From: Longivirga aurantiaca
GTDB taxonomy: Bacteria > Actinomycetota > Actinomycetes > S36-B12 > CAIYMF01
DNA: 32,000 bases
Assembly (NCBI RefSeq): GCF_042660085.1
Contig: NZ_JBHSTI010000008.1
Span: forward strand, 270,001 to 302,000
Direction: 5' to 3'
In this document: positions 4,466 to 29,948 of the stretch, piece after piece
How positions within the stretch are numbered: the first letter of the stretch is position 1
Layout: every line of letters starts with the position of its first letter
The notes under the pieces: model-generated
Seen by the model: the letters and a program-made list of their open reading frames with translations, nothing else
Told to the model about the DNA's origin: nothing
Databases searched by the model: none
Program-made: the position numbers and the translations under genes

Positions 4466-5866
4466 GTGCTGGGAGCCGATGTGATCGTGCCCATCCCGCT
4501 CATCCCCGGGGTGCCCGTCCTCGCGGCCATGGGGGCGCTCTCGACCCTTCTGGTCAATCGGAACGTGAGCGTGTTCCATGACGGGCTGCGACCCCTCATG
4601 CCGTCGCTGCGCTCTGGTGAGATGACCCGGGACCAGGTCGCCAAGATCTCGTTCAGCCTCGCCCTCGCCTTCATCTGGGCCTTCGGCCTCCCCTACTCCG
4701 TGGGCTTCGTCATCCCGCTCATCTACCTGGTGTACATCGCGACCGACTACATCGGTGTGCGGCTGCCCGCGACCTATGACGTCAGGTGGTGGCAGAGCAG
4801 GACGAACCTCCTGGGCGTCATCGGGTCGCTGGTCCTGGGTGCCGCCTGGGGCGGTGGCGTCGCGGCCTTCCTGCACTACCTGGCCGTCGGGATGTCCAAC
4901 CTGCCTGTTCCGATGGCGGCAGGCACGGCGCTGTTCACCACCCCGGTGGCTCAGGCCTTCTTCCTGTTCCCCGTACTGACCGTGGTGTACCACTACGGCT
5001 TCAGGCCGGCGCTGGTGGCGTTCGTCGTGTCCACCCTCGCCTGGTTCTCGGCGAGCCAGTTCGGCTGGGCGCTGCCGTCCGTGTGGGCTTTCGGCGCAGC
5101 GCTTCTCGTGATGGCCGTGCTCCTCGTCCGGGAGGCGCGTCGCTCGGGGCCGGCAGCGGCCCAGGTGCCACCGGGCTGGCTCATCGAGGACGAATCCGCC
5201 GCGCCCGACTGGGCCTCGGCGGATTCCGACGACGAGGCCGAGGACCAGCTCTTCCGGGACAACGTGCGCCGCATCAAGGGCAACCTCCCGCTGATCACCC
5301 TGCTCGCGGGTCTCGGTGGGGCGGCCTACCACTGGGGCCTCGTGGCGATGGACCCGTTCTCGTCGAACCTGTACGCCGTAGGGCTCGCTCTCCCTGCCGC
5401 GCTGGTCATGCTCATGTGGGCCTTCGCCTTCATCCCCATGAAGTTCACGACCGCAGTGGTCACGGGGACCATGGCGACCGGCACGTTCCTCGAGCCTGTC
5501 GTCGCCCTCCTGATGCCCAACGTCTGGGCGGCTGCGATCGGCGTCGCACTGCTCCGCGTCGTCGAGGTCTTCCTGCTCCTCGCCGTCGTCGGCTGGATCG
5601 AGCGGTGGCCCAGCATCCGCGAGGTCGCCGACGTGATGCGTACGGCGATCTTCCAGATCATGGAGATCGGGTTCCTCGTGGGCGGCGCGCTGGCAGCCGC
5701 GGCGTGGGCGGGCACGTGGGGCGTGGGCGTCGTCGTCGCCGCGTGGTTCGTGAACATCAAGGCGAAGTCGCCCGTCATGCCCATGTCCCTCGGCGCGATC
5801 GCAGCCCTCGGCGTCGGCCTGGTGGTGAACGTGCTCGCCCTGCTGGGCCTGAACCTCACCCTCTGA
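4466..5866 (+). CDS. polytopic membrane protein, YhfT-like putative transporter
   Basis: ORF track, 466 aa, GTG start, with GAGAAGGAGG at 4451-4460. It has many hydrophobic stretches and a central acidic loop (EDESAAPDWASADSDDEAED). VSVFHDGLRPLMPSL and RRIKGNLPLI resemble my memory of E. coli YhfT. This needs HMM confirmation. Confidence 0.6.
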   Translation: MLGADVIVPIPLIPGVPVLAAMGALSTLLVNRNVSVFHDGLRPLMPSLRSGEMTRDQVAKISFSLALAFIWAFGLPYSVGFVIPLIYLVYIATDYIGVRLPATYDVRWWQSRTNLLGVIGSLVLGAAWGGGVAAFLHYLAVGMSNLPVPMAAGTALFTTPVAQAFFLFPVLTVVYHYGFRPALVAFVVSTLAWFSASQFGWALPSVWAFGAALLVMAVLLVREARRSGPAAAQVPPGWLIEDESAAPDWASADSDDEAEDQLFRDNVRRIKGNLPLITLLAGLGGAAYHWGLVAMDPFSSNLYAVGLALPAALVMLMWAFAFIPMKFTTAVVTGTMATGTFLEPVVALLMPNVWAAAIGVALLRVVEVFLLLAVVGWIERWPSIREVADVMRTAIFQIMEIGFLVGGALAAAAWAGTWGVGVVVAAWFVNIKAKSPVMPMSLGAIAALGVGLVVNVLALLGLNLTL

Positions 5867-6002: not shown

Positions 6003-7628
6003 ATGAGCGTGTCGCACGACCCGGTGGACGTCCTCATCGTCGGCGCGGGCGCCTCGGGCTCCACAGCCGCCAAGCACCTGGCCGAGCAGGGGCGGAGCGT
6101 CGTCGTTCTCGACCAGGGCCACTGGACGGACGTGGGCGACCTCCCCGGCGACAAGCCGGAGTACGAGCTGCTGTGGAACAACCACCGGTTCCACCCGGAC
6201 CCCAACATGCGCGACCGCCGCGAGGACTACCCGACGAACCTCGAGGACTCCGAGCAGCCCGTGTACATGTACAACGGCGCGGGCGGCAGCACCGTCTACT
6301 TCGCCGGGGTCTGGAGCCGGCCGCTCCCGTCCGACTTCCGCGTGCGCACTCTCGACGGCGTCGCCGACGACTGGCCCATCAGCTACGAGGACCTGATCCC
6401 CTTCTTCGCGGCGACCGACTACGACATGGGCGTCTCCGGGCTCGCGGGCAACACTGCCTATCCGCCGGGGGCGGAGCCGCCGTTGCCGATGCACCCGATC
6501 AACCAGACCGGACGCCGCATGGCGGAGGGGCTGAACAGTCTCGGCTGGCACTGGTGGCCCGGGTACTCGGCCATCCCGTCCCGGGCGCACAACCGCCAGG
6601 CCCAGTGTGTTCGTCTCGGGGTGTGCCGGACCGGTTGCGTCGCCGGCGCGAAGGGTTCCGCGGACATCACTCTTCTTCCCGATGCCCTGGCACACGGTGC
6701 GCGCATCGAGACAGGAGCACGTGTCGCACGCATCACGCTGGACGAGATGGGCCGCGCGAACGGCGCCGTCTATCTCCAGGACGGCACGGAGAAGTTCCAG
6801 GCGGCACGTGTGGTCATCGTCGCCGCCAACGGGATCGGTACGCCGCGCCTGCTGCTGATGAGCGAGTCGAACCGCTTTCCGCACGGTCTGGCCAACAGCT
6901 CGGACCTCGTAGGTCGGCGTCTCATGCTCCACCCGTTCGGTTCGGCGATAGGTATCTACGACGAGGACCTGGAGGACTGGCTCGGTCCGGCCGGCACGCA
7001 GATCGAGTGCATGGAGTTCTACGAGACCGACGTCACCCGCGGCTTCGTGCGCGGCAGCAAGTGGCATGTCATGGGCACGGGTGGACCGCTCGAGATGGCC
7101 ACCCGCTGGCATATCGGGGAAGGCGTCCGCGACGAGGACTTCTGGGGCGAGCAGTTCACGCGCAAGATGAAGCAGGCCGTCGGCCACTCCATCGACTGGA
7201 TCGTCCACGCCGAGGACCTGCCCGAAGAGCACAACCGGGTCACGCTCGATCCCACGCTCACCGACAGCGACGGGCTGCCGGCGCCGAAGATCACCTACAT
7301 GACGTCGGACAACACCCACCAGATCCTGGACTTCGGGCTGAACCGCGCGGTGGAGGCGCACTACGCCGCGGGGGCGACGAAGGCGTGGATCACCTTCCGG
7401 AACTTCTCCTCGGGACACAACCTCGGGACGACGAAGATGGGTGACGATCCGGAGACCTCGGTGGTGGACCGTTGGGGTCGGACCCATGACGTCCCGAACC
7501 TCTACGTCATCGACGGTTCGGTCTTCACCACGTCGACCGCCACCAATCCGACCTCCACGATCTGTGCGCTGGCCAAGCGGACGGCGACGTTCATCGCGAA
7601 CAACCGTGACCAGGTGGTGGCGTGGTGA
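6003..7628 (+). CDS. GMC-family FAD-dependent dehydrogenase, large subunit (copy 1)
   Basis: Frame of ORF 5904..7628. Start ATG 6003 follows AGGGAG (5991-5996) and gives 541 aa, the same length as the paralog at 19874. Motifs: DVLIVGAGASGS FAD fold, HWWPGY, and the C-terminal NPTSTICALAKR segment typical of GMC enzymes. Confidence 0.85.
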   Translation: MSVSHDPVDVLIVGAGASGSTAAKHLAEQGRSVVVLDQGHWTDVGDLPGDKPEYELLWNNHRFHPDPNMRDRREDYPTNLEDSEQPVYMYNGAGGSTVYFAGVWSRPLPSDFRVRTLDGVADDWPISYEDLIPFFAATDYDMGVSGLAGNTAYPPGAEPPLPMHPINQTGRRMAEGLNSLGWHWWPGYSAIPSRAHNRQAQCVRLGVCRTGCVAGAKGSADITLLPDALAHGARIETGARVARITLDEMGRANGAVYLQDGTEKFQAARVVIVAANGIGTPRLLLMSESNRFPHGLANSSDLVGRRLMLHPFGSAIGIYDEDLEDWLGPAGTQIECMEFYETDVTRGFVRGSKWHVMGTGGPLEMATRWHIGEGVRDEDFWGEQFTRKMKQAVGHSIDWIVHAEDLPEEHNRVTLDPTLTDSDGLPAPKITYMTSDNTHQILDFGLNRAVEAHYAAGATKAWITFRNFSSGHNLGTTKMGDDPETSVVDRWGRTHDVPNLYVIDGSVFTTSTATNPTSTICALAKRTATFIANNRDQVVAW

Positions 7629-8073
7629 GCGTGGATGTGTCCGTGCAGGGTTCGGTCCCGCTCACCGCGGAGCAGCGGGCCCGGTTGTCCGCGCTGGCCG
7701 ACGTCCTGATCCGCGGCGGTGCCGGTCTGCCCTCGGCCAGCGAGGCGGAGGTGCACTCGGTGTGGATCGACCGGGTGTTCGTGGCGCGCCCGGACATGGA
7801 GGTCGTGGTGCGCGGGGTGCTGGACGTGGCTGGGGATGCCGAGTCGGTCGTGGCCGGTCTGCGGGCCTCGGACGCGGAGCGGTTCTCGGCGTTCGCGTTC
7901 GCTGTCGCGGGGGCGTGGCTGATCAATCCGCGGGTGCGTCGTGAGCTGGGCTACCCGGGCCCGGTGCCGATGCGTCAGCCCGCCCTGCCCGACGAGGCCG
8001 ACGCCTATCTCGAGGACGGCATCCTCGACGTCGTCATCGCCCGAGGCCCCATCTACCGCCCCACCCCGGACGC
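7560..8073 (+). repeat. 514-bp direct repeat, copy A (partner 21431-21944)
   Basis: Base-by-base comparison found only two mismatches (7657 C/G, 7903 T/G), both synonymous. The repeat covers the last 22 codons of the GMC gene plus essentially the whole small-subunit gene. Confidence 0.9.
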
Positions 8074-8080
8074 ACAGTGA
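7622..8080 (+). CDS. small subunit of the flavoprotein dehydrogenase (gluconate 2-dehydrogenase subunit-3-like), copy 1
   Basis: ORF track, 152 aa. The GTG overlaps the GMC stop (7626-7628). LTAEQRARLSALADVLIRGGAGLPSASEAEV fits the pattern of the small-subunit family. It has no twin-arginine signal. A GTGA overlap joins it to the next gene at 8077-8080. Confidence 0.6.
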   Translation: MVSVDVSVQGSVPLTAEQRARLSALADVLIRGGAGLPSASEAEVHSVWIDRVFVARPDMEVVVRGVLDVAGDAESVVAGLRASDAERFSAFAFAVAGAWLINPRVRRELGYPGPVPMRQPALPDEADAYLEDGILDVVIARGPIYRPTPDAQ

Positions 8081-9171
8081 GCTCGGTCCCTGTCTCCGAT
8101 GTCCTCGCCTGGAGCAGCGCAGTTCTCGTCGAGGCTGGGCTCGCTCCCGTCGACGCGGGATGGGTGGCGGAGAGCCTCGTCTTCGCCGACCTGCGAGGGG
8201 TGAGCACACACGGTGTGATGCGGCTCCCGACCTACGTCGCTCGCATCCGAGCGGGCGGTATCGCCGCGCGGCATTCGATCACCGTCGAGGCTGACCTGGG
8301 AGCGCTGGTGATCCTTGACGGCGGCGCCGGTGCCGGCGCGAGCCTCGGAGTGCACTCCGCCGATCTCGCCGTGGAACGCGCCCGCACCTACGGCATCGGC
8401 GCCGTGATCACCAAGAACGCCAACCACTTCGGCGCCTGCGCGTTCTACACCAACAGGATCGCCGACGCCGGGCTGCTGGGCCTGGTCGCGTGCAACACGG
8501 AATCCGTGATGTGTGCGCCGTTCGGTGGCGCACCCGTGCTGGGCACCAACCCGCTGGCGCTCGCCGTGCCGATGCCCGCGTCGGAACGCCCCCAGCTCGA
8601 CATGGCCACCACCACGACGAGCCAGGGCCGGCTGCTGATCGCGGAGCAGGCCGGGGAGCCGATACCGGTGGGGTGGGCCGTCGACGCGGGGGGACAACCC
8701 ACGACCTCCGCGAGCGAAGGCCTCCGCGGTGCGCTCCTGCCGATGGGCGGGCCGAAGGGGTTCGGGCTCGCCTTCGCCGTGGACGCACTCCTCGCGCTGG
8801 CCGGCGCCAACGTGAGCACGAGGGTGTCCGCTCTGGGCGGCGATCCCTCCGAGGCCCAGAGGCTGGGGCACATCGCCATCGCCATCCGCGCGGACGGTGC
8901 GCAGCCGCTCGACGACTACCGCAGCGCCATGAGCGGGCTTGTCGGTTCCATCCACGCCAGCTCGGTCGGGCTGGACGTGCCAGCGGCGGTCGCGCCGGGG
9001 GAGCCCGAGGTGGAGCGCGAGCGCGCGGCCGACGGGCGCATCTCGCTCTCGCCGCATGTCGTCGCGGAGCTCGCCGAGCTCGCCGAGAGCGCGGGGATCG
9101 CCCTGCCGTCCGCGCTCGCCGCACTCACGCGACCGATCACCACTCGCGAATCTGGAGAGACGAGCACATGA
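8077..9171 (+). CDS. Ldh_2-family (malate/L-lactate dehydrogenase type 2) oxidoreductase
   Basis: ORF track, 364 aa. Motifs: ADLRGVSTHGVMRLPTYV, FGGAPVLGTNPLALAVP, DMATTTTSQGR, GGPKGFGLAF. The family includes ureidoglycolate dehydrogenase and 2,3-diketo-L-gulonate reductase. Confidence 0.85.
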   Translation: MSSVPVSDVLAWSSAVLVEAGLAPVDAGWVAESLVFADLRGVSTHGVMRLPTYVARIRAGGIAARHSITVEADLGALVILDGGAGAGASLGVHSADLAVERARTYGIGAVITKNANHFGACAFYTNRIADAGLLGLVACNTESVMCAPFGGAPVLGTNPLALAVPMPASERPQLDMATTTTSQGRLLIAEQAGEPIPVGWAVDAGGQPTTSASEGLRGALLPMGGPKGFGLAFAVDALLALAGANVSTRVSALGGDPSEAQRLGHIAIAIRADGAQPLDDYRSAMSGLVGSIHASSVGLDVPAAVAPGEPEVERERAADGRISLSPHVVAELAELAESAGIALPSALAALTRPITTRESGETST

Positions 9172-18140: not shown

Positions 18141-18905
18141 GTGAAGGTCCTGGTCTGTGTCACACAGACGCTCGAGGTGGCGACCTACCTCGAGTTCACC
18201 CCTGACGGGCGCGAGCTGGACCCTGCCTTCGTCACCGCTCTGGTGAACGAGGCGGATCTGTGCGCCGTCGAGGAGGCGCTAGGGCTCGTCGCGGCTGCCG
18301 GCGGCGGCGAGGTCGTCCTCGTCAGCGTCGGCGAGGACAGTGCCGAGGACGCGCTCCGCTCCGCGCTGGCGCTCGGTCCGGAGCGTGCTGTCCGGGTGTG
18401 GGGCGAGGGGGTCGTGCTCTCCGACGCCGGCTCGATCGCCGCCGCGCTGATGACCGCCGTCGAGGCCGAGTCCCCGGACCTCGTGCTCACCGGAGTCCAG
18501 TCGTCGGACACCGGCGCCCAGTCGGTCGGGCCGGCCCTCGCCGCGCGGTGGGGTGTCGCCTGCGTGCCCGTGGGCCGACGGCTGTCGGCGTCCGGATCGA
18601 CCCTCAGCCTGGAGCGCGAGTTCGAGGCCGGCCTCGTCGAGCGGGTCGAGGTGGATCTGCCCGCCCTGGTGACGGTTCAGGTCGGTGCCAACACGCCTCG
18701 CTACGGGACCTTCAAGGACAAGATGCGTGCGAAGAAGGCTGACATCGGCGTGCTCGAGCCCTCGGTGATGCCGCCGGCGCGGACGACGCTCACCCGCCTT
18801 GAGGCAGCTCCGCACGGCTCCGGCCGCTCGATCGAGCTCATCGAGGGCGGCCCGTCGGTCGTAGCCGCCCGCATCGTCGAACTGGTTCGGGAGGCCCAGT
18901 CGTGA
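18141..18905 (+). CDS. etfB: electron transfer flavoprotein, beta subunit
   Basis: ORF track, 254 aa, GGAGGG RBS. MKVLVCV... N-terminus, NEADLCAVEEAL, and DLVLTGVQSSD, typical of EtfB/FixA. Confidence 0.85.
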   Translation: MKVLVCVTQTLEVATYLEFTPDGRELDPAFVTALVNEADLCAVEEALGLVAAAGGGEVVLVSVGEDSAEDALRSALALGPERAVRVWGEGVVLSDAGSIAAALMTAVEAESPDLVLTGVQSSDTGAQSVGPALAARWGVACVPVGRRLSASGSTLSLEREFEAGLVERVEVDLPALVTVQVGANTPRYGTFKDKMRAKKADIGVLEPSVMPPARTTLTRLEAAPHGSGRSIELIEGGPSVVAARIVELVREAQS

Positions 18906-19846
18906 CCCGTTCCCTGGTCCTTGCCGAGGTGGTGGACGGCGTCCTCGCCCCCGTGACAGCGCAGGCGGTCGCGGCCGCCGTGGGCCTGGGCGGCGACATC
19001 GTCCTCGGCCTCGTCGCGCAGGACCCTGAGGCGCTCGTCCTTGCCGCTTCTCTGGCGGGTGTCACCGAGATCGTGACGGTCGCGGTCCCAGGGACGGACC
19101 GTGATCACGAGCAGGCGCTCCAGGCGGCCGTGGCCCTCGTGGCCGACGTCCGGCCCGATCAGGTGATCGCCGGATTCACCATCCGTTCCTCGTCCTACGC
19201 GGCCGCACTCGGTCACGTCCTGGACGTGGGCGTGATCACCGACGCGATCGCCCTGCGCCGTGACGACTCACAGAACCTGGTCGCGACACGGTCGGTCTAC
19301 GACGGCCGCGTCCAGGCCGAGGTGGTGCTCGACGGCTCCCGGCCGGGCGTCGTCCTGGTACGCCCGTCGTCCTGGGAGCCCGTCGAGCCCGGTGGCGCAC
19401 CGGTCGTACGGGCGCTGAGCGTCGAGATCGCCCCATCGCGTGTTCGCTCCGTCGAGCTCGTTCGGCCGTCGGGCGACGTCGACCTCGCGCGCGCCGACGT
19501 GATCCTCTCGATCGGTCGCGGAGTGGGGAGCCAGGAGAACGTGGCTGTCTTCGCGGACGTTGCGGCCAGGCTGGGTGTGGCGCTGGGTGCCTCGCGGCCG
19601 ATCGTCGATGCCGGATGGCTGCCGGCGGCGCACCAGGTCGGGCAGACCGGTTCGACCGTGAAGCCCCGCCTGTACCTGGCCTTCGGCATCTCCGGCGCGC
19701 TGCACCACCTGGCGGGTATGCAGAACAGCCGGACCATCCTGGTCGTGAACTCCGACAGGAACGCCCCGCTCTTCGGCCACGCCGATGTCGGTGCCGTCGA
19801 GGATATCCATGACGTCGTCGAGCAGCTCAACCTGCTGCTCGCCTAG
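18902..19846 (+). CDS. etfA: electron transfer flavoprotein, alpha subunit
   Basis: ORF track, 314 aa. GTGA overlap with etfB. C-terminal FAD domain: GASRPIVDAGWLP...QVGQTGSTVKPRLYLAFGISGALHHLAGM. Confidence 0.85.
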   Translation: MTRSLVLAEVVDGVLAPVTAQAVAAAVGLGGDIVLGLVAQDPEALVLAASLAGVTEIVTVAVPGTDRDHEQALQAAVALVADVRPDQVIAGFTIRSSSYAAALGHVLDVGVITDAIALRRDDSQNLVATRSVYDGRVQAEVVLDGSRPGVVLVRPSSWEPVEPGGAPVVRALSVEIAPSRVRSVELVRPSGDVDLARADVILSIGRGVGSQENVAVFADVAARLGVALGASRPIVDAGWLPAAHQVGQTGSTVKPRLYLAFGISGALHHLAGMQNSRTILVVNSDRNAPLFGHADVGAVEDIHDVVEQLNLLLA

Positions 19847-19873: not shown

Positions 19874-21499
19874 GTGAGCACGCACGATGTGCCAGACGTA
19901 CTCATCATCGGCGCGGGAGCGTCGGGCGGTGTCGCGGCCAAGCATCTGGCCGAGGAAGGCCTCAGCGTCGTCATCCTCGAACAGGGGAACTGGGTCGACC
20001 AGAGCGACATGCCCGGGCTCCGTCCGGAGTACGAGCTCCTCGGCAGCGGTCCCTGGCATCCGAACCCCAACGTTCGTAACCGCCCCGAGGACTACCCGGT
20101 CAATCTCGACGACAGCGCGGCGGTCATCGGGATGTTCAACGGCGTCGGCGGCAGCACGGTCCTGTACGCCAGCTGCTGGTGCCGCGCCAAGCCGTCGGAC
20201 TTCCGCGTGCGCACGCTCGACGGCGTGGCCGACGACTGGCCGTTGTCGTACGAGGAGCTCGCCCCCTTCTACGCGCAGGTCGAGCTGGAGCTCGGGATCT
20301 CGGGTCAGCCAGGGAACCCGGCCTACCCGCCGGGCTACGCGCCGCCGCTCCCCTCGCTGCCCATCAACATGGCGGGACGCGTCATGGCGCAGGGCATGAA
20401 CAAGCTGGGCTGGCACTGGTGGCCCGGCTACAACTCGATCGCCTCCCGTGACCATCTGCATCAGAAGCAGTGCCAGCGCCTCGGCGTGTGCATGTACGGA
20501 TGCCCTGAGGGGGCCAAGGGCTCGAGCGACGTAGCCCTCATCCCCGATGCGCTGGCGCACGGTGCGCGGCTCGAGACCGGCGCCCGCGTCGCCCAGATCA
20601 CCCTGGACGAGAAGGGCCGTGCCAGCGGAGCCGTCTACTTCAAGGACGGCAAGGAGCACTTCCAGCCGGCCAAGGTCGTGCTCGTGGGCGCCAACGGTGT
20701 CGGGACGCCACGACTTCTGCTGATGAGCGAGTCCAACCGGTTCCCGGACGGGCTCGCGAACAGCTCGGGCCTCGTCGGCAAGCGGTTCATGACACATCCG
20801 TTCGGCACATCCGTCGGTCTCTACGAGGACGATCTCGAGGACTGGGTCGGCCCAACCGGCGAGGCGATCGAGTCGATGCAGTTCTACGAGACCGATGCCT
20901 CGCGCGGATTCGTGCGCGGCAGCAAGTGGCACATCATCCCGTCCGCGGGGCGCCCCCTCGGCATGATCAACCGCTTCACGATGGGGGAGGCGGGTGTCGC
21001 GGACGAGCCGTTCTGGGGGGAGCCCTTCACCGACCGGATGAGGTCGTCCGTCGGGCACCTCATCGAGTGGATGATCATGCCCGACGACCTGCCGGAGGAG
21101 ACGAACTTCATCTCGCTCGACCGGTCGATGTCCGACTCCGACGGTCTTCCCGCCGCCAAGGTCACCTACGTGACATCGGAGAACACGCGTCGGCTCGTCG
21201 ACTGGAACCTCCAGCGGAGCCTCGAGGCGCACGAGGCCGCCGGGGCGACGAAGGCGTGGATCACCAACCGCAACAACCCCTCGTGGCACAACATGGGCAC
21301 CGCCAAGATGGGCGACGACCGTGAGACCTCGGTCGTGGACCGTTGGGGTCGGACCCATGACGTCCCGAACCTCTACGTCATCGACGGGAGCCAGTTCCCC
21401 ACGGCGACGGGAGTCAATCCGACCGCGACGATCTGTGCGCTGGCCAAGCGGACGGCGACGTTCATCGCGAACAACCGTGACCAGGTGGTGGCGTGGTGA
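19874..21499 (+). CDS. GMC-family FAD-dependent dehydrogenase, large subunit (copy 2)
   Basis: ORF track, 541 aa, GTG start after GGGAGGA. By eye it is roughly two thirds to 70% identical in protein to copy 1 over most of its length. The last 22 codons are identical at the nucleotide level. Confidence 0.85.
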   Translation: MSTHDVPDVLIIGAGASGGVAAKHLAEEGLSVVILEQGNWVDQSDMPGLRPEYELLGSGPWHPNPNVRNRPEDYPVNLDDSAAVIGMFNGVGGSTVLYASCWCRAKPSDFRVRTLDGVADDWPLSYEELAPFYAQVELELGISGQPGNPAYPPGYAPPLPSLPINMAGRVMAQGMNKLGWHWWPGYNSIASRDHLHQKQCQRLGVCMYGCPEGAKGSSDVALIPDALAHGARLETGARVAQITLDEKGRASGAVYFKDGKEHFQPAKVVLVGANGVGTPRLLLMSESNRFPDGLANSSGLVGKRFMTHPFGTSVGLYEDDLEDWVGPTGEAIESMQFYETDASRGFVRGSKWHIIPSAGRPLGMINRFTMGEAGVADEPFWGEPFTDRMRSSVGHLIEWMIMPDDLPEETNFISLDRSMSDSDGLPAAKVTYVTSENTRRLVDWNLQRSLEAHEAAGATKAWITNRNNPSWHNMGTAKMGDDRETSVVDRWGRTHDVPNLYVIDGSQFPTATGVNPTATICALAKRTATFIANNRDQVVAW

Positions 21500-21944
21500 G
21501 CGTGGATGTGTCCGTGCAGGGTTCGGTGCCGCTCACCGCGGAGCAGCGGGCCCGGTTGTCCGCGCTGGCCGACGTCCTGATCCGCGGCGGTGCCGGTCTG
21601 CCCTCGGCCAGCGAGGCGGAGGTGCACTCGGTGTGGATCGACCGGGTGTTCGTGGCGCGCCCGGACATGGAGGTCGTGGTGCGCGGGGTGCTGGACGTGG
21701 CTGGGGATGCCGAGTCGGTCGTGGCCGGTCTGCGGGCCTCGGACGCGGAGCGGTTCTCGGCGTTCGCGTTCGCGGTCGCGGGGGCGTGGCTGATCAATCC
21801 GCGGGTGCGTCGTGAGCTGGGCTACCCGGGCCCGGTGCCGATGCGTCAGCCCGCCCTGCCCGACGAGGCCGACGCCTATCTCGAGGACGGCATCCTCGAC
21901 GTCGTCATCGCCCGAGGCCCCATCTACCGCCCCACCCCGGACGC
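21431..21944 (+). repeat. 514-bp direct repeat, copy B (partner 7560-8073)
   Basis: See copy A. Identity stops at 21944, one base before the TGA stop of small-subunit copy 2. Confidence 0.9.
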
Positions 21945-21948
21945 CTGA
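21493..21948 (+). CDS. small subunit of the flavoprotein dehydrogenase, copy 2
   Basis: ORF track, 151 aa. The protein is identical to copy 1 except that it lacks the terminal Gln. Confidence 0.6.
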   Translation: MVSVDVSVQGSVPLTAEQRARLSALADVLIRGGAGLPSASEAEVHSVWIDRVFVARPDMEVVVRGVLDVAGDAESVVAGLRASDAERFSAFAFAVAGAWLINPRVRRELGYPGPVPMRQPALPDEADAYLEDGILDVVIARGPIYRPTPDA

Positions 21949-21954
21949 GACGGC

Positions 21955-22908
21955 TTATGGGCGGGCCGGCTCATGCCAGGTCAGGAAGCGCGCGGGGTTG
22001 TCGACGGTGATCCGGCGTACCGACTCGTCGTCGAGGCCCTCGCGGCGTAGCCACGGGATGAGTCGCCACGGGATGTAGCTGTAGCCGGGCCCACCACCCC
22101 ACGACACCAGCGAGCTGCGTCGTGCCAGGTCGCCGGACAGGGTGATGTGGTCGACCAGGCCGTCCTCGACGAGGCGGAGGATCGCTTGGACTCGGGCGGA
22201 GTCCGGCTCGTACCACTCCTTCGACACGCAGTCGTAGCCGAGTGTGAACCCGTCCCGCGCCAAGGCGCGGTGCTCCGCCACGTCCAGCCTGCGGTCGAGA
22301 TGACCGAGCGTGACGCGCTGCGGATCGGCGCCGGCACGGGTGAGGACCCGGGCCTGGTCGACGGCCATCGTCCCGGCCGTCGTATGGGTGGTGATCGGCG
22401 CGCCCGTGACGACCTGCGCCCGGGCTGCTGCAGTGAGGACGCGCTCCTCGGCGGCAGTCACGGTGTCCCGGGAGCTGCCTGCCTTGATCACCCCCGCGCG
22501 TACGCCGGTGGCACCGATCCCCTCGGTGAGCTCGACCGTCATCTCCTCGACGAGCTGGTCGACCCCGCGGTCCTCGATGTCGAGAACCCCGGACCAGTAG
22601 TCGACGGACACGTGGCCGGTGGTGGCGACGACATGCACCCCGGAGGCGCGCGAGATGCGCGCGAGAGCGGCGACGTCGCGGCCGAACTCGGCGACCGTCA
22701 CCTCGACGAGGGCCCCGCCTCCGGCCGAGCGGTAGATGGCCACCTCCTCGGTCGCGCGAGCCTCGTCGTCGAGCAGCAGGTCGTCGTTGTCGCGCAGCCG
22801 AGGCGCGGGGGCGGTCATGAGGTGCTCGTGGCAGAGCGTCAGACCGAGAGCCGTCGGTGGGATGTCACCGAGCACCGTCCGTACGAATGCTTGACCCGTC
22901 ATGGTCAC
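21955..22908 (-). CDS. phosphotriesterase-homology protein (amidohydrolase superfamily, Php/YhfV-like; possible lactonase)
   Basis: ORF track, 317 aa. HxH motif in LTLCHEHL, with later metal-ligand contexts (TTHT, GHLD, LSGD). The start may be ATG 22902 if the transcript is leaderless. Confidence 0.8.
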   Translation of the reverse strand: MTMTGQAFVRTVLGDIPPTALGLTLCHEHLMTAPAPRLRDNDDLLLDDEARATEEVAIYRSAGGGALVEVTVAEFGRDVAALARISRASGVHVVATTGHVSVDYWSGVLDIEDRGVDQLVEEMTVELTEGIGATGVRAGVIKAGSSRDTVTAAEERVLTAAARAQVVTGAPITTHTTAGTMAVDQARVLTRAGADPQRVTLGHLDRRLDVAEHRALARDGFTLGYDCVSKEWYEPDSARVQAILRLVEDGLVDHITLSGDLARRSSLVSWGGGPGYSYIPWRLIPWLRREGLDDESVRRITVDNPARFLTWHEPARP

Positions 22909-22929: not shown

Positions 22930-23901
22930 ATGATGACGAGACCATCGGAGCAGGACGTGGTGCAACGGCTCTACTTCGTGGGCGTCTCCACGGCCGCCTC
23001 CGGCATCATGACCATCTTCCCCGCCTGGGCCGAGGCGCTCGGCCTCCGCGCCGAGATGCACGGCGTCGATCTCCCCGTGCAGGCCCGCCCGGACGACGTG
23101 CGCGCGGTGATCGACACCCTGGCAGTCGACCCGCAGGCAGTCGGCGCGCTCGTGACGACGCACAAGGCCGCGGTCTGGGACGCCGCCTCGGACCGCTTCT
23201 CCGAACTCGACCCCTGGGCGCAGGTGTGTCGCGAGATCTCGTGCATCGCGGTGCGCGACCGGGGTCTGATCGGCTGGGCGAAGGACCCGATCACCTCGCG
23301 CCAGGCGTACACGCACCTGCTCGGCGAGGACCCCTGGGGCGGCGGTGAGCGCGATCTGGTCTGCCTCGGCGCGGGTGGTGCCGGGCTGGCTCTGGCCGCG
23401 GCAGTCCTGGACGGCGGGCACCAGCCGCGCCGGGTGGTGCTCGCCGACCGGGACCCCGGGCGACTGACGGTCTCCCGGGAGGTGCTCGACCAGCTCGACG
23501 TTCGGGCAGAGCTCGAGCTCGTCGTCACGAGCAGCCCGGAGCAGGCCGGGGACCTGGTGTCGGCGTCCGCCGAGGGCTCCCTGGTCGTGAACGCCACGGG
23601 CATGGGCAAGGACCTGCCCGGCTCGCCGGTCGGGCCGGACGCGGTCTTCCCCCGGGGCGCGGTGGCGTGGGACATGAACTACCGAGGCGACCTGGCGTTC
23701 CTGGACATCGCGAGGGCGCAGCAGCTCGAGCGGGGTCTCGTAGTCGCCGACGGGTGGCGCTACTTCCTCCACGGCTGGACCGAGGTCATCGCCGAGCTGT
23801 TCGGCGTCGCGATGTCCCCCGACGTGTTCGCCGAGCTCGCCTCAATCGCCGGTCAGGTGTCGGGTCGGGAGGTGGGCAGTGCCGGCGTCAGCCGTGGCTG
23901 A
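22930..23901 (+). CDS. shikimate/quinate-dehydrogenase-family protein (divergent member)
   Basis: ORF track, 323 aa. VTTHKAAV resembles the NVTxPxK motif, CLGAGGAGLALAAAVL resembles the NAD(P) loop, and VNATGMG is also present. The N-terminal substrate motif is atypical. Confidence 0.6.
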   Translation: MMTRPSEQDVVQRLYFVGVSTAASGIMTIFPAWAEALGLRAEMHGVDLPVQARPDDVRAVIDTLAVDPQAVGALVTTHKAAVWDAASDRFSELDPWAQVCREISCIAVRDRGLIGWAKDPITSRQAYTHLLGEDPWGGGERDLVCLGAGGAGLALAAAVLDGGHQPRRVVLADRDPGRLTVSREVLDQLDVRAELELVVTSSPEQAGDLVSASAEGSLVVNATGMGKDLPGSPVGPDAVFPRGAVAWDMNYRGDLAFLDIARAQQLERGLVVADGWRYFLHGWTEVIAELFGVAMSPDVFAELASIAGQVSGREVGSAGVSRG

Positions 23902-24779: not shown

Positions 24780-25184
24780 ATGGTCAAGGAACGGCTCGTT
24801 CGCGTCGTCGTCGCTGGTGTCGATGCCCCCTCCATGGCGCAGCTCGCCACGAACGCGGGCGGAGGCCGGGTGGAGGCGGCCGCGCTCGGCGACATGCAGG
24901 GCGCTCGGCTGGTCAAGAAGGGTCAGGCCGACTACTACCTCGGCACCTGCTGGTCCGGCGGCGGCGGAGCGCTGGCTGCGGCCACCGCCATCCTGGGCGC
25001 CAACCTCGTGGGGATCGTCGGAACACCCGGCATGATCGTCACGGAGGAGCGGGTGCGGACCGCGGTAGGCGAGGGCCGCATCGCCTTCGGGTTCGCCTAC
25101 GAGCAGTCGACGGCCGCGATCCCCATGATCATCAGCGAGATCCTCGCCCACCGCGATGCGCTTGGCGGAGGCACGGATGACTGA
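24780..25184 (+). CDS. DUF2620 / YhfU-like protein
   Basis: ORF track, 134 aa, AGGAAAGAAGG RBS. GQADYYLGTCWSGGGGALAAATAILG and GRIAFGF...AIPMII resemble my memory of E. coli YhfU. This needs an HMM check. Confidence 0.55.
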   Translation: MVKERLVRVVVAGVDAPSMAQLATNAGGGRVEAAALGDMQGARLVKKGQADYYLGTCWSGGGGALAAATAILGANLVGIVGTPGMIVTEERVRTAVGEGRIAFGFAYEQSTAAIPMIISEILAHRDALGGGTDD

Positions 25185-25599
25185 GTCGGCCCCCACCTCG
25201 GCCGCAGCACTCGCGGCGGTGGCCGCCGAGTTCGCCGAGAGGCTCGATCTGCTCGAGGAGAGCGGGCAGGTGACCAACCTCGCCCGCCGTCTCACCGAGC
25301 TGTGCCTCGCAGAGCTGGCGACCGACCTCGGTCTCACGCTGACCGAGGACAACGCCGCCCAGTTCGTCACCCATCTCGCCATCGCCCTCACCCGCATCAA
25401 CCGGGGCGACCCCGAGATCGCGTCGTCGGTCGTGGCGGCGGAGGAGATCGCGGACCGAACGCGCGAGCACGATGCGGTGATGCGCGTCATGCACGACGCC
25501 TCGCGCCTGCTCCAGCGCGAGGTCCCCGAGTCGGAGATCACCTTCATGACGGTCCACCTCTGCGGCTTGGTCGACGAGAAGGCAGCGTCCGGAGCGTGA
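25177..25599 (+). CDS. stand-alone PRD-like protein (YhfY-like)
   Basis: Frame of ORF 25156..25599. ATG 25177 overlaps the upstream stop by 8 nt. The protein looks all-helical. Two His residues in PRD-like contexts (FVTHLAIAL and FMTVHLCGL) lie 61 residues apart. Confidence 0.5.
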   Translation: MTESAPTSAAALAAVAAEFAERLDLLEESGQVTNLARRLTELCLAELATDLGLTLTEDNAAQFVTHLAIALTRINRGDPEIASSVVAAEEIADRTREHDAVMRVMHDASRLLQREVPESEITFMTVHLCGLVDEKAASGA

Positions 25600-26801
25600 T
25601 GAGGCGCGCGGTCATCGTGGTCATCGACGGCTTCGGCATCGGGGCGACGCCGGACGCCGGCCCAGCCGACCTCGGGATGAACACGCTGGCGCACGTCGCT
25701 GACGCCGTCGACCTCCGGCTGCCGGTGCTCGCGTCGCTGGGCCTCGGACGTCTCGTGCCCGACGCGGTCGAGCCGGTGCAGGAACCGCGTGCGGCATACG
25801 GCCGGCTCACGCCTGTGCACATCGGCGCGGACACGTACATGGGCCATCAGGAGCTCATGGGCGGTGGCCTCTCACGGGTCGAGTTCCGGCTCATGGAGGA
25901 GCTCGGCGACGACGTCGCCGCGGCCCTCCGGTCCGCAGGGCACACGGTGGAACCCCTCGTCGTCGGGCAGTCGATGCTGCTGGTGGACGGTGCCGTGGTG
26001 GTGCACGACAACATCGAGGCACGTGCGCGGCTCAACGTGAACGTGACCGCGTCACTCGACGACATCGACTTCGACGCCCTTACCGAGATCGGGTTGATCG
26101 TGCGGCGCGCGATCAACGTCTCGCGGGTGATCGTCGTCGGGAGCCGCGGATACGACGTCGACAGCATCCGCTCCCACATCGTCCATCGCGGCGACGGGCA
26201 CATCGGCGTCGACACCCCGAGCCTCGGCGTCTACAACGAGCACTACCAGGTGCGGCACCTCGGACTCGACCTGCCGATCGAGCGTCAGCTCCCGATGCGG
26301 GTCAAGGACCAGGGCGGCGATGTCGTCCTGCTCGGCAAGGCCGCCGATGTGGTGAGGTGCGAGGGGGCGACCCTGGAGAACATCGTGCCGACGGACGGGG
26401 TGTTCGATGCCGCTGTGCGGCATCTCGACGGGTTGAGCCGCGGCCTGATCGTCGCGAACGTGCAGGAGTCCGACTTGGCGGGGCACGAGCAGGATGCCGC
26501 GCGCTACGCCCGCGTCCTGGCAACCGTCGACGCCAGGCTGCAGGAGCTGCTCGACCGTCTCGGACCCGACGACCTTCTCGTGATCACCGCCGATCACGGC
26601 AACGACCCGACCTCGGGCAGCAGCAGGCACACCCGCGAGTACGTACCGGTCCTCGTCCTCGGCCAGCAGCTACGCCCGGTCGATCTCGGGATCCGGTCGT
26701 CCCTGGCTGACGTGGGGGCCACCGTCGCGGAGCTCCTCGGCACCGAGCCACTCGATTCAGGCACGTCCTTCGCCCGGGAGATCCTGTGTTCATCGATGTG
26801 A
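25599..26801 (+). CDS. phosphopentomutase-family metalloenzyme (YhfW/DeoB-like mutase)
   Basis: Frame of ORF 25302..26801. ATG 25599 shares its A with the upstream TGA. Product is 400 aa. Motifs: VIVVIDGFGIGATPDA, MGHQELMGG, SDLAGHEQD, ITADHGNDPT. Confidence 0.75.
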   Translation: MRRAVIVVIDGFGIGATPDAGPADLGMNTLAHVADAVDLRLPVLASLGLGRLVPDAVEPVQEPRAAYGRLTPVHIGADTYMGHQELMGGGLSRVEFRLMEELGDDVAAALRSAGHTVEPLVVGQSMLLVDGAVVVHDNIEARARLNVNVTASLDDIDFDALTEIGLIVRRAINVSRVIVVGSRGYDVDSIRSHIVHRGDGHIGVDTPSLGVYNEHYQVRHLGLDLPIERQLPMRVKDQGGDVVLLGKAADVVRCEGATLENIVPTDGVFDAAVRHLDGLSRGLIVANVQESDLAGHEQDAARYARVLATVDARLQELLDRLGPDDLLVITADHGNDPTSGSSRHTREYVPVLVLGQQLRPVDLGIRSSLADVGATVAELLGTEPLDSGTSFAREILCSSM

Positions 26802-27994
26802 CCCTGCGCCGCAATCCCGAGCTCGTGGGCGCCGCCGTCGACCTCCATCAGGCGGGGCGGATCCCGTCGAACTGCTACGTGGTGGATCTGGACGCCGTGT
26901 CGAGGAATGCGGCGCTGGTCGCGCGATCAGCGGCGTCGCACGGACTCACGCCGTACCAGATGACCAAGCAGTTCGGTCGCAACCCGATCGTGGCCCGGGC
27001 CGTGGCAGCGGCGGGTATCGAGAAGGTGGTGGCGGTGGACTTCGAGGAAGCGCGGCTGCTCCACAGCCACGGGCTGCGCATCGGGCATCTGGGGCACCTC
27101 GTGCAGGTCCCGCGAGACGAGGTCGGCCTGGCCCTCGACATGGAGCCGGACTTCATCACGGTCTTCGGCCTGGCCCAGGCTGCCCGGCTGAGCGCGGCGG
27201 CAGTGGAGCGGGGGCTCGTGCAGGACGTCACCCTTCGCGTGGTCGGCCCGGACGACACGTTCTACGCCGCGCAGCGCGGCGGCGTGCCGGTGCACGAGGC
27301 GGTCGAGGTGGCGACCCGGATCCGGGACCTACCCGGCGTCCGTCTGCGCGGAGTCACGAGCTTCCCCGTGGTCCTGTGGGACGAGTCCGTCGGCGCGTTC
27401 GCGCCGACAGCCAACCTCTCCACGCTGGGTGCGGTCTCGCAGGCTCTGCGGGCCGCCGGGATCGACGTGGACGTCCTCAACGCCCCGAGTGCGTGCTGCA
27501 CCGCGACGTTCGGGATGAAGGCCGCAGCCGGTGCGACCCATGTGGAGCCAGGGAGCTGCCTCACCGGCCAGACACCGCTGCACGCGGTGAGCGACGAGCC
27601 CGAGCTCCCGGCCATGATCTACGTCTCGGAGGTGTCGCACACGACTGCCGACGCCGCCTACGCGATCGCCGGCGGCCTCTACCCACGGTGCAAGTCGCGC
27701 ACCGCGCTGGTGTACGACGAGGCCGGTGCCACCCCCCTCGTCGCCCAGGTCGAGCTCGACCCGGCCGAGGCGATCGACTACTACGGCACACTGCGTACGG
27801 ACGATCCGCCATCGGTGCGGGTCGGCAGCACCGTCGTCTACGCCTTCCGGGCGCAGGTCTTCGTGAGCAGGTGCTTCGTCGCGGTGGTGAGCGGCGTACA
27901 GGGGACCCCCACCGTGGAGGGCATCTTCACCAGCACGGGATTCCGGCTCGGCCCTGACCTGCTGCCGCTGTCGAACGGGAGAACCCACCCATGA
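26786..27994 (+). CDS. alanine-racemase-fold PLP-binding protein (YhfX-like)
   Basis: ORF track, 402 aa. MF..TLRRNPEL, MTKQFGRNP (candidate PLP Lys) and GHLGHLVQVP resemble my memory of E. coli YhfX. The alternative start GTG 26798 would give a GTGA overlap. Confidence 0.7.
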   Translation: MFIDVTLRRNPELVGAAVDLHQAGRIPSNCYVVDLDAVSRNAALVARSAASHGLTPYQMTKQFGRNPIVARAVAAAGIEKVVAVDFEEARLLHSHGLRIGHLGHLVQVPRDEVGLALDMEPDFITVFGLAQAARLSAAAVERGLVQDVTLRVVGPDDTFYAAQRGGVPVHEAVEVATRIRDLPGVRLRGVTSFPVVLWDESVGAFAPTANLSTLGAVSQALRAAGIDVDVLNAPSACCTATFGMKAAAGATHVEPGSCLTGQTPLHAVSDEPELPAMIYVSEVSHTTADAAYAIAGGLYPRCKSRTALVYDEAGATPLVAQVELDPAEAIDYYGTLRTDDPPSVRVGSTVVYAFRAQVFVSRCFVAVVSGVQGTPTVEGIFTSTGFRLGPDLLPLSNGRTHP

Positions 27995-28266
27995 CCGCCA
28001 TCCGTACCGCCGTCGTCGCCGATCCCCTGGGGCTCCACGCTCGTCCCGCAGCGGAGCTCGTGGCACAGGCCCGGGCCTACGAGTCCGACCTCGTCCTCGC
28101 GTCCGGCGAGAAGACGGGGAACTGCAAGAGCCTGCTGGCGGTGCTGAAACTGGGCATCGTGGGCGGCACCGAGGTGACGGTGACGGCAACGGGTCCCGAC
28201 GAAGCCGTCGCGGTCGAGGTGCTCGCCTCGTTCCTCGAGCTGGTCCACGGAGAAGGCACATCGTGA
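27991..28266 (+). CDS. ptsH: phosphocarrier protein HPr
   Basis: ORF track, 91 aa. ATGA overlap with the previous gene. Active-site GLHARPA (His16) and the Ser47 region GNCKSLLAVLKLG. Confidence 0.85.
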   Translation: MTAIRTAVVADPLGLHARPAAELVAQARAYESDLVLASGEKTGNCKSLLAVLKLGIVGGTEVTVTATGPDEAVAVEVLASFLELVHGEGTS

Positions 28267-29948
28267 TCGTCACCGGCATCCCCGTCTCGGGAGGGATCGC
28301 TGTCGGCCGTCTCGTGGTGGTGGGCGCGCTGATGCCGACCGACGTCGACTCCGTCTCGGTCTCAGAGTCCGGAGGAAGTGCCGAAGAGCGGATGACCCGG
28401 CTCGTTGCCGCCGTCGCCGCCAGCCGCCAGGAGATCTCGTCGATCGCGGCCCAGACGCGGCAGCGCATCGGGAGCGACCCGGCTGCGATCATCGAGGCCC
28501 AGCTGCTCGTGCTCGACGACCCCGAGTGGTGGGAGCCGATTCGTGACGAGGTGCTCGGCGGGGCGGAGCCGACGACCGCGGTGCGGTCGGTGACCGAGGC
28601 CGTGGCCGAGGCCCTCGCCTCGCTCGACGATCCCTACCTTCGCGAGCGGTCGGCCGACGTGCTCGACGTCGGCCAGCGCGTTGCGGGCCATCTCGTAGGC
28701 AGGTCCCGCACCCACGCGCTGCACGGTCAGACCGGCGATGTCGTGGTCGCAGCCCACGAGCTCACTCCGACCGACACCCTCGACCTCGACCTCGACGTCG
28801 TCCGCGGCATCGTGACCGAGGCCGGGGCCCGCACCTCGCACGCCGCCATCCTGGCGCGCCAGCTGGGGATCCCCGCTGTGGTCGGAGCCGTCGGGGTGCT
28901 GGAGGCCGCTGCTCCCGGTGTGGTCGTGGTGCTCGACGGCGATGCAGGCACGTGCGAGATCGATCCGGAGCCGCACGCCCTCGACCTGGCACGGGCCAGG
29001 TCCCTGGGGCGTGCGACGCCGTCCGTCATCACCCAGTCGGTGACGACCCGGGACGGCGTGCAGGTGCACGTGCTCGCGAACGCCTCCAGCGTCTCCGACG
29101 TCGAGCGGGCCGTGGCCGAGGGTGCGGACGGGATCGGGCTGTACCGGACCGAGTTCCTGTTCATGCGGTCGGACGGGCTGCCGGACGAGGCGACCCAGGC
29201 TGAGCACTACGCGGCGGTGGCCGAGGCTGCCGGTGGGCGTCCGGTGACCTTCCGGACCCTCGACGTCGGCGGCGACAAGCCGGTTCCCGGGCTCAAGATG
29301 GACCCCGAGGAGAACCCGTTCCTCGGAGTTCGCGGCATTCGCCTGACCCTGGCGAACCGTCCGGTGTTCGACGCGCAGCTGCGCGCGCTCGCGCGGACCT
29401 CCGATGCTTTCCCGGGCGTGTCGGTGATGGTTCCGATGGTCTCGGGGCTCGAGGAGCTCGACGACGTGCGCCGCGTCCTGCAGGACGTGGCGCCTCGGGT
29501 CGCGTTCCGCCTCGGCGCCATGGTCGAGGTGCCGAGTGCCGCGCTGCTGGTCGATGCCCTGGCGCGGGAGGTCGACTTCCTCTCGGTCGGTACCAACGAC
29601 CTCACCGCCTACCTGCTGGCGGCGGACCGCGGCAATCGCCACCTGCACGGGCTGTACTCGGAGTTCCATCCGGCCGTCCTTCGCGCGCTGCATCTCATCC
29701 GCGACGGCGCGAAGGAGACTCCCGTCAGCGTCTGCGGCGAGCTCGCAGGTGACCCGCGGGCTACGGGCCTGCTCATCGGCCTGGGGTATCGGCAGCTGTC
29801 CGTGTCAGGGCCGCTCGTGCCGGCTGTGAAGGAGCGGATCCGCACGATCGACACGGCGGCCGCCGAACGGGCGGCCGAGGAGCTGCTGAGAGCGCGCCGC
29901 CATCGCGATGTCGACGCGATCCTGGAGTCGCGCCCGTTCGAGGCTTGA
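28263..29948 (+). CDS. ptsI: PEP-protein phosphotransferase, PTS Enzyme I
   Basis: ORF track, 561 aa. GTGA overlap with ptsH. Motifs: GARTSHAAILARQLGIPAVVG (phospho-His), GIGLYRTEFLF, SVGTNDLTAY, and CGELAGDP in the C-terminal PEP-binding domain. Confidence 0.9.
   Translation: MIVTGIPVSGGIAVGRLVVVGALMPTDVDSVSVSESGGSAEERMTRLVAAVAASRQEISSIAAQTRQRIGSDPAAIIEAQLLVLDDPEWWEPIRDEVLGGAEPTTAVRSVTEAVAEALASLDDPYLRERSADVLDVGQRVAGHLVGRSRTHALHGQTGDVVVAAHELTPTDTLDLDLDVVRGIVTEAGARTSHAAILARQLGIPAVVGAVGVLEAAAPGVVVVLDGDAGTCEIDPEPHALDLARARSLGRATPSVITQSVTTRDGVQVHVLANASSVSDVERAVAEGADGIGLYRTEFLFMRSDGLPDEATQAEHYAAVAEAAGGRPVTFRTLDVGGDKPVPGLKMDPEENPFLGVRGIRLTLANRPVFDAQLRALARTSDAFPGVSVMVPMVSGLEELDDVRRVLQDVAPRVAFRLGAMVEVPSAALLVDALAREVDFLSVGTNDLTAYLLAADRGNRHLHGLYSEFHPAVLRALHLIRDGAKETPVSVCGELAGDPRATGLLIGLGYRQLSVSGPLVPAVKERIRTIDTAAAERAAEELLRARRHRDVDAILESRPFEA

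Follow-up and report, generated by a model that had tools for sequence, protein, structure and literature searches.

Two dehydrogenase loci with near-identical and diverged segments

The 32,000-nt stretch of Longivirga aurantiaca DNA analysed here (contig NZ_JBHSTI010000008.1, positions 270,001 to 302,000; hereafter the window, W) carries two copies of a unit in which the gene for a GMC-family FAD dehydrogenase large subunit (L) is followed by the gene for a small subunit (S). The two L-S units are 2.07 kb long and lie 13.9 kb apart in direct orientation within one catabolic gene cluster. We refer to the genes as L1 and S1 at locus 1 and as L2 and S2 at locus 2, and to the two copies in the window as W1 and W2. 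Their 3' flanks are unique, that of locus 2 being marked by a phosphotriesterase-family (PTE) gene, and electron transfer flavoprotein (ETF) genes adjoin locus 2 (Table 1).

Table 1 Features of the two L-S loci (window positions)
Feature	Position	Strand	Remarks
L1, GMC-family FAD dehydrogenase large subunit, locus 1	6003..7628	+	541 aa; Pfam GMC_oxred_N/C
Predicted 3Fe-4S ligands of L1, Cys202-x5-Cys208-x3-Cys212	6606..6638	+	L2 equivalent 20471-20503
His472 codon	7416-7418	+	motif GHNLGT; predicted catalytic pair with Asn515
Left homogenised patch, copy 1	7452..7516	+	partner 21323-21387; encodes ETSVVDRWGRTHDVPNLYVIDG
Island, copy 1	7517..7556	+	partner 21388-21427; core differing in every genome 7533-7543
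Asn515 codon, predicted second catalytic residue	7545..7547	+	motif TATNPT
Main homogenised tract, copy 1	7557..8073	+	last 23 codons of L1 and nearly all of S1
S1, small subunit	7622..8080	+	152 aa; start overlaps the L1 stop by 7 nt
Ldh_2-family dehydrogenase	8077..9171	+	Pfam Ldh_2, E 1.2e-90; unique 3' flank of locus 1
ETF beta	18141-18905	+	Pfam ETF; directly upstream of L2, with ETF alpha
ETF alpha	18902-19846	+	Pfam ETF_alpha
L2, paralogous large subunit, locus 2	19874..21499	+	541 aa; 67% identical to L1
Main homogenised tract, copy 2	21428..21944	+	partner of 7557..8073
S2, small subunit	21493..21948	+	151 aa; the S1 protein minus its terminal Gln
PTE/php-like gene	21955..22908	-	Pfam PTE, E 3.6e-62; unique 3' flank of locus 2

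Pairwise comparison of window positions at a fixed offset of 13871 bp shows that the divergence of the two units is uneven and not uniform, with a left patch and a main tract that are near-identical and a remainder that is diverged. The L1 and L2 proteins are 66.9% identical overall, in keeping with an earlier sequence-only reading of this DNA that had by eye put the two GMC proteins, upstream of the near-identical patches, at about two thirds to 70% identity. Upstream of 7340 the identity is 64% for protein, 70.6% for nucleotides and 58% for third codon positions, and the same codon is used at only 181 of the 285 identical residues. The copies of the main tract, by comparison, differ at 2 of 517 positions, 7657 (C/G) and 7903 (T/G), both synonymous and both at the third position of an S codon (GTC/GTG for Val and GCT/GCG for Ala, respectively). 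These are the two synonymous differences that the sequence-only reading had reported between 7560-8073 and 21431-21944, although the identical block really begins at 7557. The same reading had described a near-identical left patch followed by a diverged 43-bp stretch, and had placed the end of identity at the last small-subunit codons; we find a single mismatch in the patch (7463), 16 mismatches in the 43 bp between patch and tract (7517-7559), and an end at 8073, beyond which copy 1 reads ...GCA CAG TGA, the S1 stop and the GTG of the following gene overlapping, and copy 2 reads ...GCC TGA.

Conversion was assessed with our own permutation version of a Sawyer-type test on polymorphic sites (10,000 permutations). 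The longest concordant run in the window spans 124 sites, against a maximum of 28 in the 10,000 permutations (P <= 1e-4), and P <= 1e-4 was obtained in each of 6 genomes.

The same mosaic in other actinobacterial genomes

Both loci were found in six further genomes: a groundwater-metagenome relative (R), three Nocardioides isolates, one metagenome-assembled genome (MAG) and Planosporangium flavigriseum. A reference-genome scan supplied the Nocardioides and MAG set (Nocardioides zhouii, N. aquiterrae, Nocardioides sp. PD653-B2 and an uncultured Actinomycetota MAG), and in these four the loci lie ~14 kb apart on one contig with an identity profile as in the window. Relative R (~85% nucleotide identity) has the window gene order and encodes an identical 151-aa S protein at both loci, which show an identity profile matching that of the window loci. 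The units of P. flavigriseum stand in tandem (L2-S-orf-L1-S-Ldh_2) and display the same mosaic, with S copies that differ at 3 residues. A four-part mosaic of L body, left patch, island, and L tail with S is present in all six further genomes, which belong to the Propionibacteriales (the three Nocardioides), the Micromonosporales (Planosporangium) and Nanopelagicales-labelled or unclassified Actinomycetota relatives.

Four-taxon site patterns between W and R change from one part of the mosaic to the next. The L body (6003-7436) has ~196 sites that group by locus and 12 that group by genome, while the left patch has 1 and 12, the island 11 and 3, and the tail with S 0 and 73, respectively; past the S stop codon the by-locus pattern resumes. 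Across all pairs of the six main genomes, the tail with S has 59-153 by-genome sites against 0-1 by-locus sites, the exception being the close pair MFD/PD (15 by genome, 6 by locus), in which the 6 by-locus sites sit at the extreme 3' edge of the tract. The L body gives 136-294 by-locus against 5-45 by-genome sites, and the left patch 7-15 by-genome against 0-1 by-locus sites. Neighbour-joining trees agree with these counts: by-locus splits are seen for the L body and the island, and by-genome groups for the left patch, L tail and S, with bootstrap values of 89.5-100 for the within-genome S pairs and of 96-100 for the left patch, where the by-genome grouping holds in all 7 genomes. Within genomes the tract copies differ at 2-19 of ~520 sites (0.4-3.6%); between genomes they differ by 4-31%, and the p-distance of up to 0.31, with many amino-acid changes, exceeds the ~0.2 of the L body.

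The gene neighbourhoods are likewise kept. L1 orthologues are 80-93% identical and always located between a YhfT gene and S-Ldh_2, the Ldh_2 gene being kept downstream of S. L2 orthologues share 86-91% identity; ETF beta/alpha always precedes them, and S and a convergent PTE gene, whose position is kept as well, always follow. With the contexts YhfT-L1-S-Ldh_2 and ETF-L2-S-PTE both preserved, the duplication is older than the speciations. Furthermore, because the L bodies group by locus and the tail, S and left patch group by genome, the duplication is old and the homogenisation recurrent. Similarity within a genome exceeds that to orthologues, synonymous sites included, and is found in more than one order together with a significant converted fragment, as is characteristic of concerted evolution.

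Seven further assemblies break their contigs inside S. Each holds two contigs with the last 127-149 nt of S in common, which then continue into Ldh_2 or PTE, as expected of an exact repeat longer than the k-mer of the assembler. Blastococcus and Arthrobacter are supported only indirectly, by such contig breaks.

Two separate observations concern the assignment of contigs. A comparison of the Planosporangium contigs L023 and L028 as a locus pair revealed no conversion. L028 is an unrelated third paralogue, and the actual pair is a tandem one within L023. In addition, two contigs of a MAG labelled Bifidobacterium breve (L036 and L037; CALQEM020000079.1 and CALQEM020000016.1) carry this high-GC actinobacterial cluster and read, around the S stop, as the LacPavin Actinomycetota MAG (L039), which suggests mis-binning or contamination of the Bifidobacterium breve bin.

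Recent homogenisation and moving tract edges

The closest available relative of the window, L007, is represented by locus 1 only and shows ~6% nucleotide divergence in the flanking genes. Its tract differs from W1 at 29 of 517 sites, compared to 2 between the W copies, and hence homogenisation has been recent and recurrent. L007 has the W2 state at both sites that distinguish W1 from W2 (7657 and 7903), and W1 has therefore gained two mutations since the last homogenisation. A similar time-scale is obtained from MFD/PD, which are ~5% apart: at least 15 substitutions are common to both copies of one genome, none within S is by locus, and ~20 copy-specific singletons are still unhomogenised. The shared substitutions together with the unhomogenised singletons indicate that conversion is ongoing on a time-scale of a few percent divergence. 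Position 7463, which is by locus in W and R, was considered as a conserved locus-specific site and dropped, as locus 1 of L007 has the other state.

The sequence-only reading had raised the question of whether tract boundaries move between relatives, and they do. The 5' edge of the left patch lies at ~7434 in R, ~18 bp earlier than in the window; the left third of the island is homogenised in N. zhouii; and the tail of N. aquiterrae retains 8 paralogue differences while S is homogenised. Nocardioides (L011/L034, L013/L014 and L015/L016) has an extra by-genome patch in the L body, at the equivalent of 6720-6900, which encodes ARxETGARVARITLDENGLANGAVYFQDG and which neither the window nor its closest relatives have.

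Recurrent gene conversion as the likely origin of the mosaic

Taken as a whole, the mosaic is very probably explained by an old duplication followed by recurrent and recent gene conversion, with the island most likely kept by selection. An ancient duplication produced two copies of the L-S unit, after which the large subunits diverged to 67% identity, each being kept as an orthologue across several actinobacterial orders. Non-reciprocal homologous recombination, i.e. intrachromosomal gene conversion of a probably RecA-type mechanism, would then repeatedly overwrite one copy with the other in the S gene, in the last ~23 L codons and in a 65-90 bp patch encoding the conserved ETSVV...NLYVIDGS motif. 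The 3' limit of the tract corresponds to the end of the duplicated homology at the S stop codon. Conversions that overwrite the island would alter the active site and would most likely be removed by selection, with the mismatch density then acting as an additional barrier to strand exchange. The sequence-only reading had proposed gene conversion (concerted evolution) in place of a recent whole-operon duplication. That proposal stands, given six genomes with by-locus L bodies and by-genome tail and S, and is extended by the recurrence and recency of conversion in these genomes; the diverged 43-bp stretch, which had been left without interpretation, corresponds to the active-site loop that ends at Asn515.

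Some points weigh against this explanation. The by-locus root split of the L body has a bootstrap of only ~50-60 once truncated and outlying sequences are added, although the by-locus site counts are decisive in the core six genomes despite this moderate value. RecA-dependent conversion is deduced from the pattern, and several of the genome labels are MAG bin names that may be wrong.

The window considered alone, with a single and very young tract (2/517), could reflect a one-off conversion or re-duplication of S and the tail in this genome. This is very improbable given six other genomes that have the same tract with the same edges, an S that is 15-31% different from that of the window and the by-genome grouping, as well as homogenised substitutions that have accumulated since splits of only 5-6% divergence. 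It is just as hard to credit that a collapsed or consensus-polished repeat has given different S genes the appearance of identity. The repeat is indeed difficult for short-read assemblers, as the seven broken assemblies illustrate, but those breaks themselves need a real exact repeat longer than k. Moreover, six independent assemblies, isolates included, hold both copies on single long contigs (103 kb in N. zhouii, 656 kb in N. aquiterrae and 251 kb in PD653-B2, with 8 metagenome blocks on contigs of 50-200 kb), and within the repeat each assembly has 2-19 copy-specific differences and an unhomogenised island. The probability is close to nil that identity is maintained by purifying selection at the nucleotide level, for example on an overlapping element or an RNA structure. 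Nothing specific points to such constraint, the opposite-strand open reading frames (ORFs) at 7591-7926 and 21462-21797 (-) being typical high-GC shadow ORFs, and between genomes no part of the unit evolves faster than the tract. Because its divergence between genomes exceeds that of the L body, the tract is not unusually constrained, and purifying selection cannot explain its identity within them.

Enzyme class of the large subunits

The best solved homologues of L1 are the large subunit of fructose dehydrogenase (FDH; 7w2j, E 1.5e-58) and the alpha subunit of FAD-dependent glucose dehydrogenase (FAD-GDH; 6a2u_B, E 2.4e-51). Homology to the L subunits of FDH FdhSCL (7W2J) and of the Burkholderia cepacia FAD-GDH gamma-alpha-beta complex (BcGDH; 6A2U) extends over the full length (E 1e-51 to 1e-58), and the FAD-binding motif, the C-x5-C-x3-C 3Fe-4S motif and the His/Asn pair are kept in the window L. 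Cys202, Cys208 and Cys212 line up with CCGNNNCMPIC in fructose dehydrogenase and with Cys212/218/222 in BcGDH, and both L1 and L2 are thus predicted to bind a 3Fe-4S cluster. The putative catalytic pair is present in L1 and L2, and the spacing of 43 residues between His472 and Asn515 equals that of His476/Asn519 in BcGDH alpha. As in FDH and FAD-GDH, the large subunit is accompanied by an adjacent, translationally coupled gene for a small helical subunit of ~150 aa.

In contrast to FDH and FAD-GDH, the window S has no twin-arginine translocation (Tat) signal and the window L no signal, a motif scan for twin-arginine/Tat or signal motifs in S or L having returned none. The Cys of the inter-subunit disulfide is missing in the window proteins, and ETF genes adjoin one window locus in place of a cytochrome c subunit; no CxxCH haem motif was found in the 31 likely window genes checked. 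Hence the enzyme resembles the FDH/FAD-GDH class yet is not filed as a member of that complex type, because neither a Tat-bearing PF13618 small subunit nor a cytochrome c subunit was found. In all genomes that have locus 2, the ETF beta/alpha genes directly precede L2. This suggests that ETF, and not a cytochrome c subunit, is the electron acceptor of this 3Fe-4S GMC dehydrogenase, a pairing that is not described for the solved FDH/FAD-GDH enzymes, and we infer a probably cytoplasmic enzyme that would hand its electrons to ETF.

The small-subunit family

Neither Pfam (up to E <= 10) nor NCBIfam yields a match for S, and source records name the proteins of its family 'hypothetical protein'. The family comprises 247 word-indexed matches and ~1000 clusters at 50% identity. 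The predicted S structure is helical (pLDDT 83.8) with a low-confidence proline-rich segment at the C-terminus, and it is in this P-rich segment that the invariant residues of the family cluster (…LGYPG…P…PDEA..YLEDGIL..V..RGPIYRPTP; proteins P0001-P0268). Sub-threshold matches to PF13618 (Gluconate_2-dh3) were obtained for 4 of 10 S-family members (E 0.004-0.05). An S-family profile against the PDB gave nothing significant, and neither did Foldseek of the S model against the PDB, in which the FDH small subunit (9jqa_B, 8jej_B) scored TM 0.32-0.35 at E ~6-8. S is probably related, remotely, to the known small 'hitchhiker' subunits but, unlike them, Tat-less.

Two further arrangements of S were seen. 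In P0131, P0143, P0152 and P0171, all truncated fragments, an S domain is followed by a Rossmann FAD-binding N-terminus in one ORF; they may be natural fusions of S with L, or else gene calls that ran through S-L junctions. Another contig (L022/L027, labelled Reyranellaceae) carries two S copies that are fully diverged, one of which precedes its L.

An island of divergence before the predicted catalytic Asn

The island encodes S-V-F-T-T-S-T-A-T-N-P-T-S at locus 1 and S-Q-F-P-T-A-T-G-V-N-P-T-A at locus 2, where Asn is the predicted catalytic Asn515. The two copies differ at 16 of 40 positions in the window and at 10-16 of 40 across genomes, with sites 7533 and 7540-7543 differing in all of them, and both flanks are homogenised as far as the island core. 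Directly before Asn515 the window has S-T-A-T at locus 1 and A-T-G-V at locus 2. Across genomes, locus 1 reads ..TSTAT-NPT (TSSST in Planosporangium), while locus 2 reads ..TATGV-NPT in all, so that positions -3, -2 and -1 relative to Asn515 are occupied at locus 1 by S-A-T (S-S-T in Planosporangium) and at locus 2 by A-G-V.

In an island of divergence, a functionally distinct stretch stays different between paralogues under conversion and selection while both flanks are homogenised. Such islands are reportedly accounted for by the two-locus conversion models of Innan and of Teshima and Innan, with RHCE/RHD and opsin-type genes said to be examples. As in those islands, the stretch seen here is short, apparently functionally distinct and flanked by homogenised sequence; it differs from them in being located in a bacterial operon, in having a core of ~3 codons directly before a catalytic residue and in its recurrence in at least 7 genomes. 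The most fitting interpretation is an island of divergence kept by selection, and its residues may well be functionally relevant in view of their position at -3 to -1 of the predicted catalytic Asn. The locus-specific residues are kept in lineages whose S differs by up to 31%, which shows that each island state is under purifying selection at its own locus.

Alternatively, after the divergence had arisen, its dense mismatches could by themselves have stopped strand exchange, so that the island would persist free of selection; this possibility weighs against the role of selection in the proposed scheme. A barrier of mismatches alone is countered by the conservation of the locus-specific residues across genomes, which argues for selection, without proving selection against conversion. 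The by-genome synonymous sites of the island (7529, 7544 and 7553) are not claimed as proof of conversion through it: two abut the right-hand tract and one fits a chance parallel change (background ~2.6% of third positions).

Homogenisation of S and the L tail

The simplest reading of the homogenised L tail is that it is carried along by the adjoining S in a harmless swap. An adaptive account, that of the sequence-only reading, would hold that one S and the contacting L tail must fit both catalytic subunits, with identity as the selected outcome; we consider this rather unlikely. In its favour, the tail co-varies with S between lineages (...FIANNRDQVVAW in W, ...H/YLVENRREQ(E/K)VS in Nocardioides) and is identical within each genome, and a single S gene lies between L2 and L1 in L019 and L025. 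It has also been argued that concerted evolution often involves members of one complex (Wang & Chen 2018, PMC6053082). The tail is, however, contiguous with S, such that co-conversion is expected without selection. The single-S L019 has differing L tails (~73-75% nucleotide identity, ISALAKRTATHIVDTARSQRTGA versus ICAFARRTAMHIVATARQQRTGF), and the N. aquiterrae tail is only partly homogenised alongside a homogenised S. In addition, the published alpha-gamma interface of 6A2U, the closest solved homologue for which an interface is described, consists of the 39-83 loop, 172-176, 333-342 and helices alpha11/12, with no C-terminal tail; a literature search did not find an FDH cryo-EM paper describing the FdhS-FdhL interface.

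The L2-S-L1-Ldh_2 architecture with a single S was observed at L019:2379-7324 (labelled Lichenihabitans) and L025:189-3316 (labelled Panacagrimonas MAG). These single-S genomes suggest that one S can serve both large subunits, and S is presumably functionally equivalent in the two complexes of the window. A more far-reaching, and speculative, possibility is that the homogenisation is functional: a Pfam-less, Tat-less S would be the common partner of two cytoplasmic, ETF-linked 3Fe-4S GMC dehydrogenases, conversion would keep S and the L tail co-adapted, and the three codons before Asn515 would act as a specificity switch. If true, this would be long-term concerted evolution that is sub-genic and limited to one subunit, the opposite of the proposed prokaryotic rule that the whole complex converts together.

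Relation to known concerted evolution

A genome-wide survey reported 26 prokaryotic genes whose concerted evolution is long-lasting and recurrent; it described such cases as exceedingly infrequent and emphasised a tendency of whole complexes to convert together (Wang & Chen 2018, PMC6053082). The L-S pair resembles tufA/tufB, psbA/psbD, amoCAB and etfAB of that survey in that the paralogues occupy different conserved contexts and encode a complex member; as in the surveyed cases, within-genome similarity is above that of orthologues, also at synonymous sites, and recurs across several orders. It is absent from the 26-gene list, however, and differs from the cases therein (PMC6053082) in that homogenisation is confined to one subunit and ~5% of the other gene, the catalytic subunit having diverged, and in that the window tract is sub-genic and interrupted. 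Conversion of bacterial paralogues is already well established, and the L-S pair is a new, unusually clean, sub-genic example of it and no new principle.

The mosaic can be regarded as a natural mutagenesis screen in which the swappable parts have been swapped between two enzymes, and the unswapped parts, i.e. the three residues before the catalytic Asn and the enzyme body, mark the functional difference of the dehydrogenases. It draws attention to an uncharacterised small-subunit family of considerable size that has no Pfam model, to a putative cytoplasmic, ETF-linked variant of the FDH/FAD-GDH enzyme class, and to a host gene cluster related to the unexplained E. coli php-yhf cluster. On the practical side, an exact repeat of ~520-620 bp fragments short-read assemblies of these genomes.

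The surrounding gene cluster

Within the cluster, homologues of the E. coli php-yhf genes, themselves uncharacterised, lie at 4466-5866, 21955-22908 (-), 24780-28266 and 28263-29948, and comprise YhfT, PTE/php, DUF2620 (YhfU-like), a PRD protein, a YhfW-like metalloenzyme and a YhfX-like protein. The cluster also encodes HPr, PTS enzyme I, IclR and GntR regulators, KDPG-type aldolases and Ldh_2, as well as an MR_MLE enolase-family enzyme and HAD phosphatases. With this content it looks like a catabolic island for a sugar-like or amino-sugar-like compound; a literature search on yhf/php cluster function found nothing useful. A 323-aa ORF at 22930-23901 has no Pfam match and a coding-like GC content at third codon positions (GC3 0.91), and is kept adjoining PTE in the relative (L001:11437-12408).

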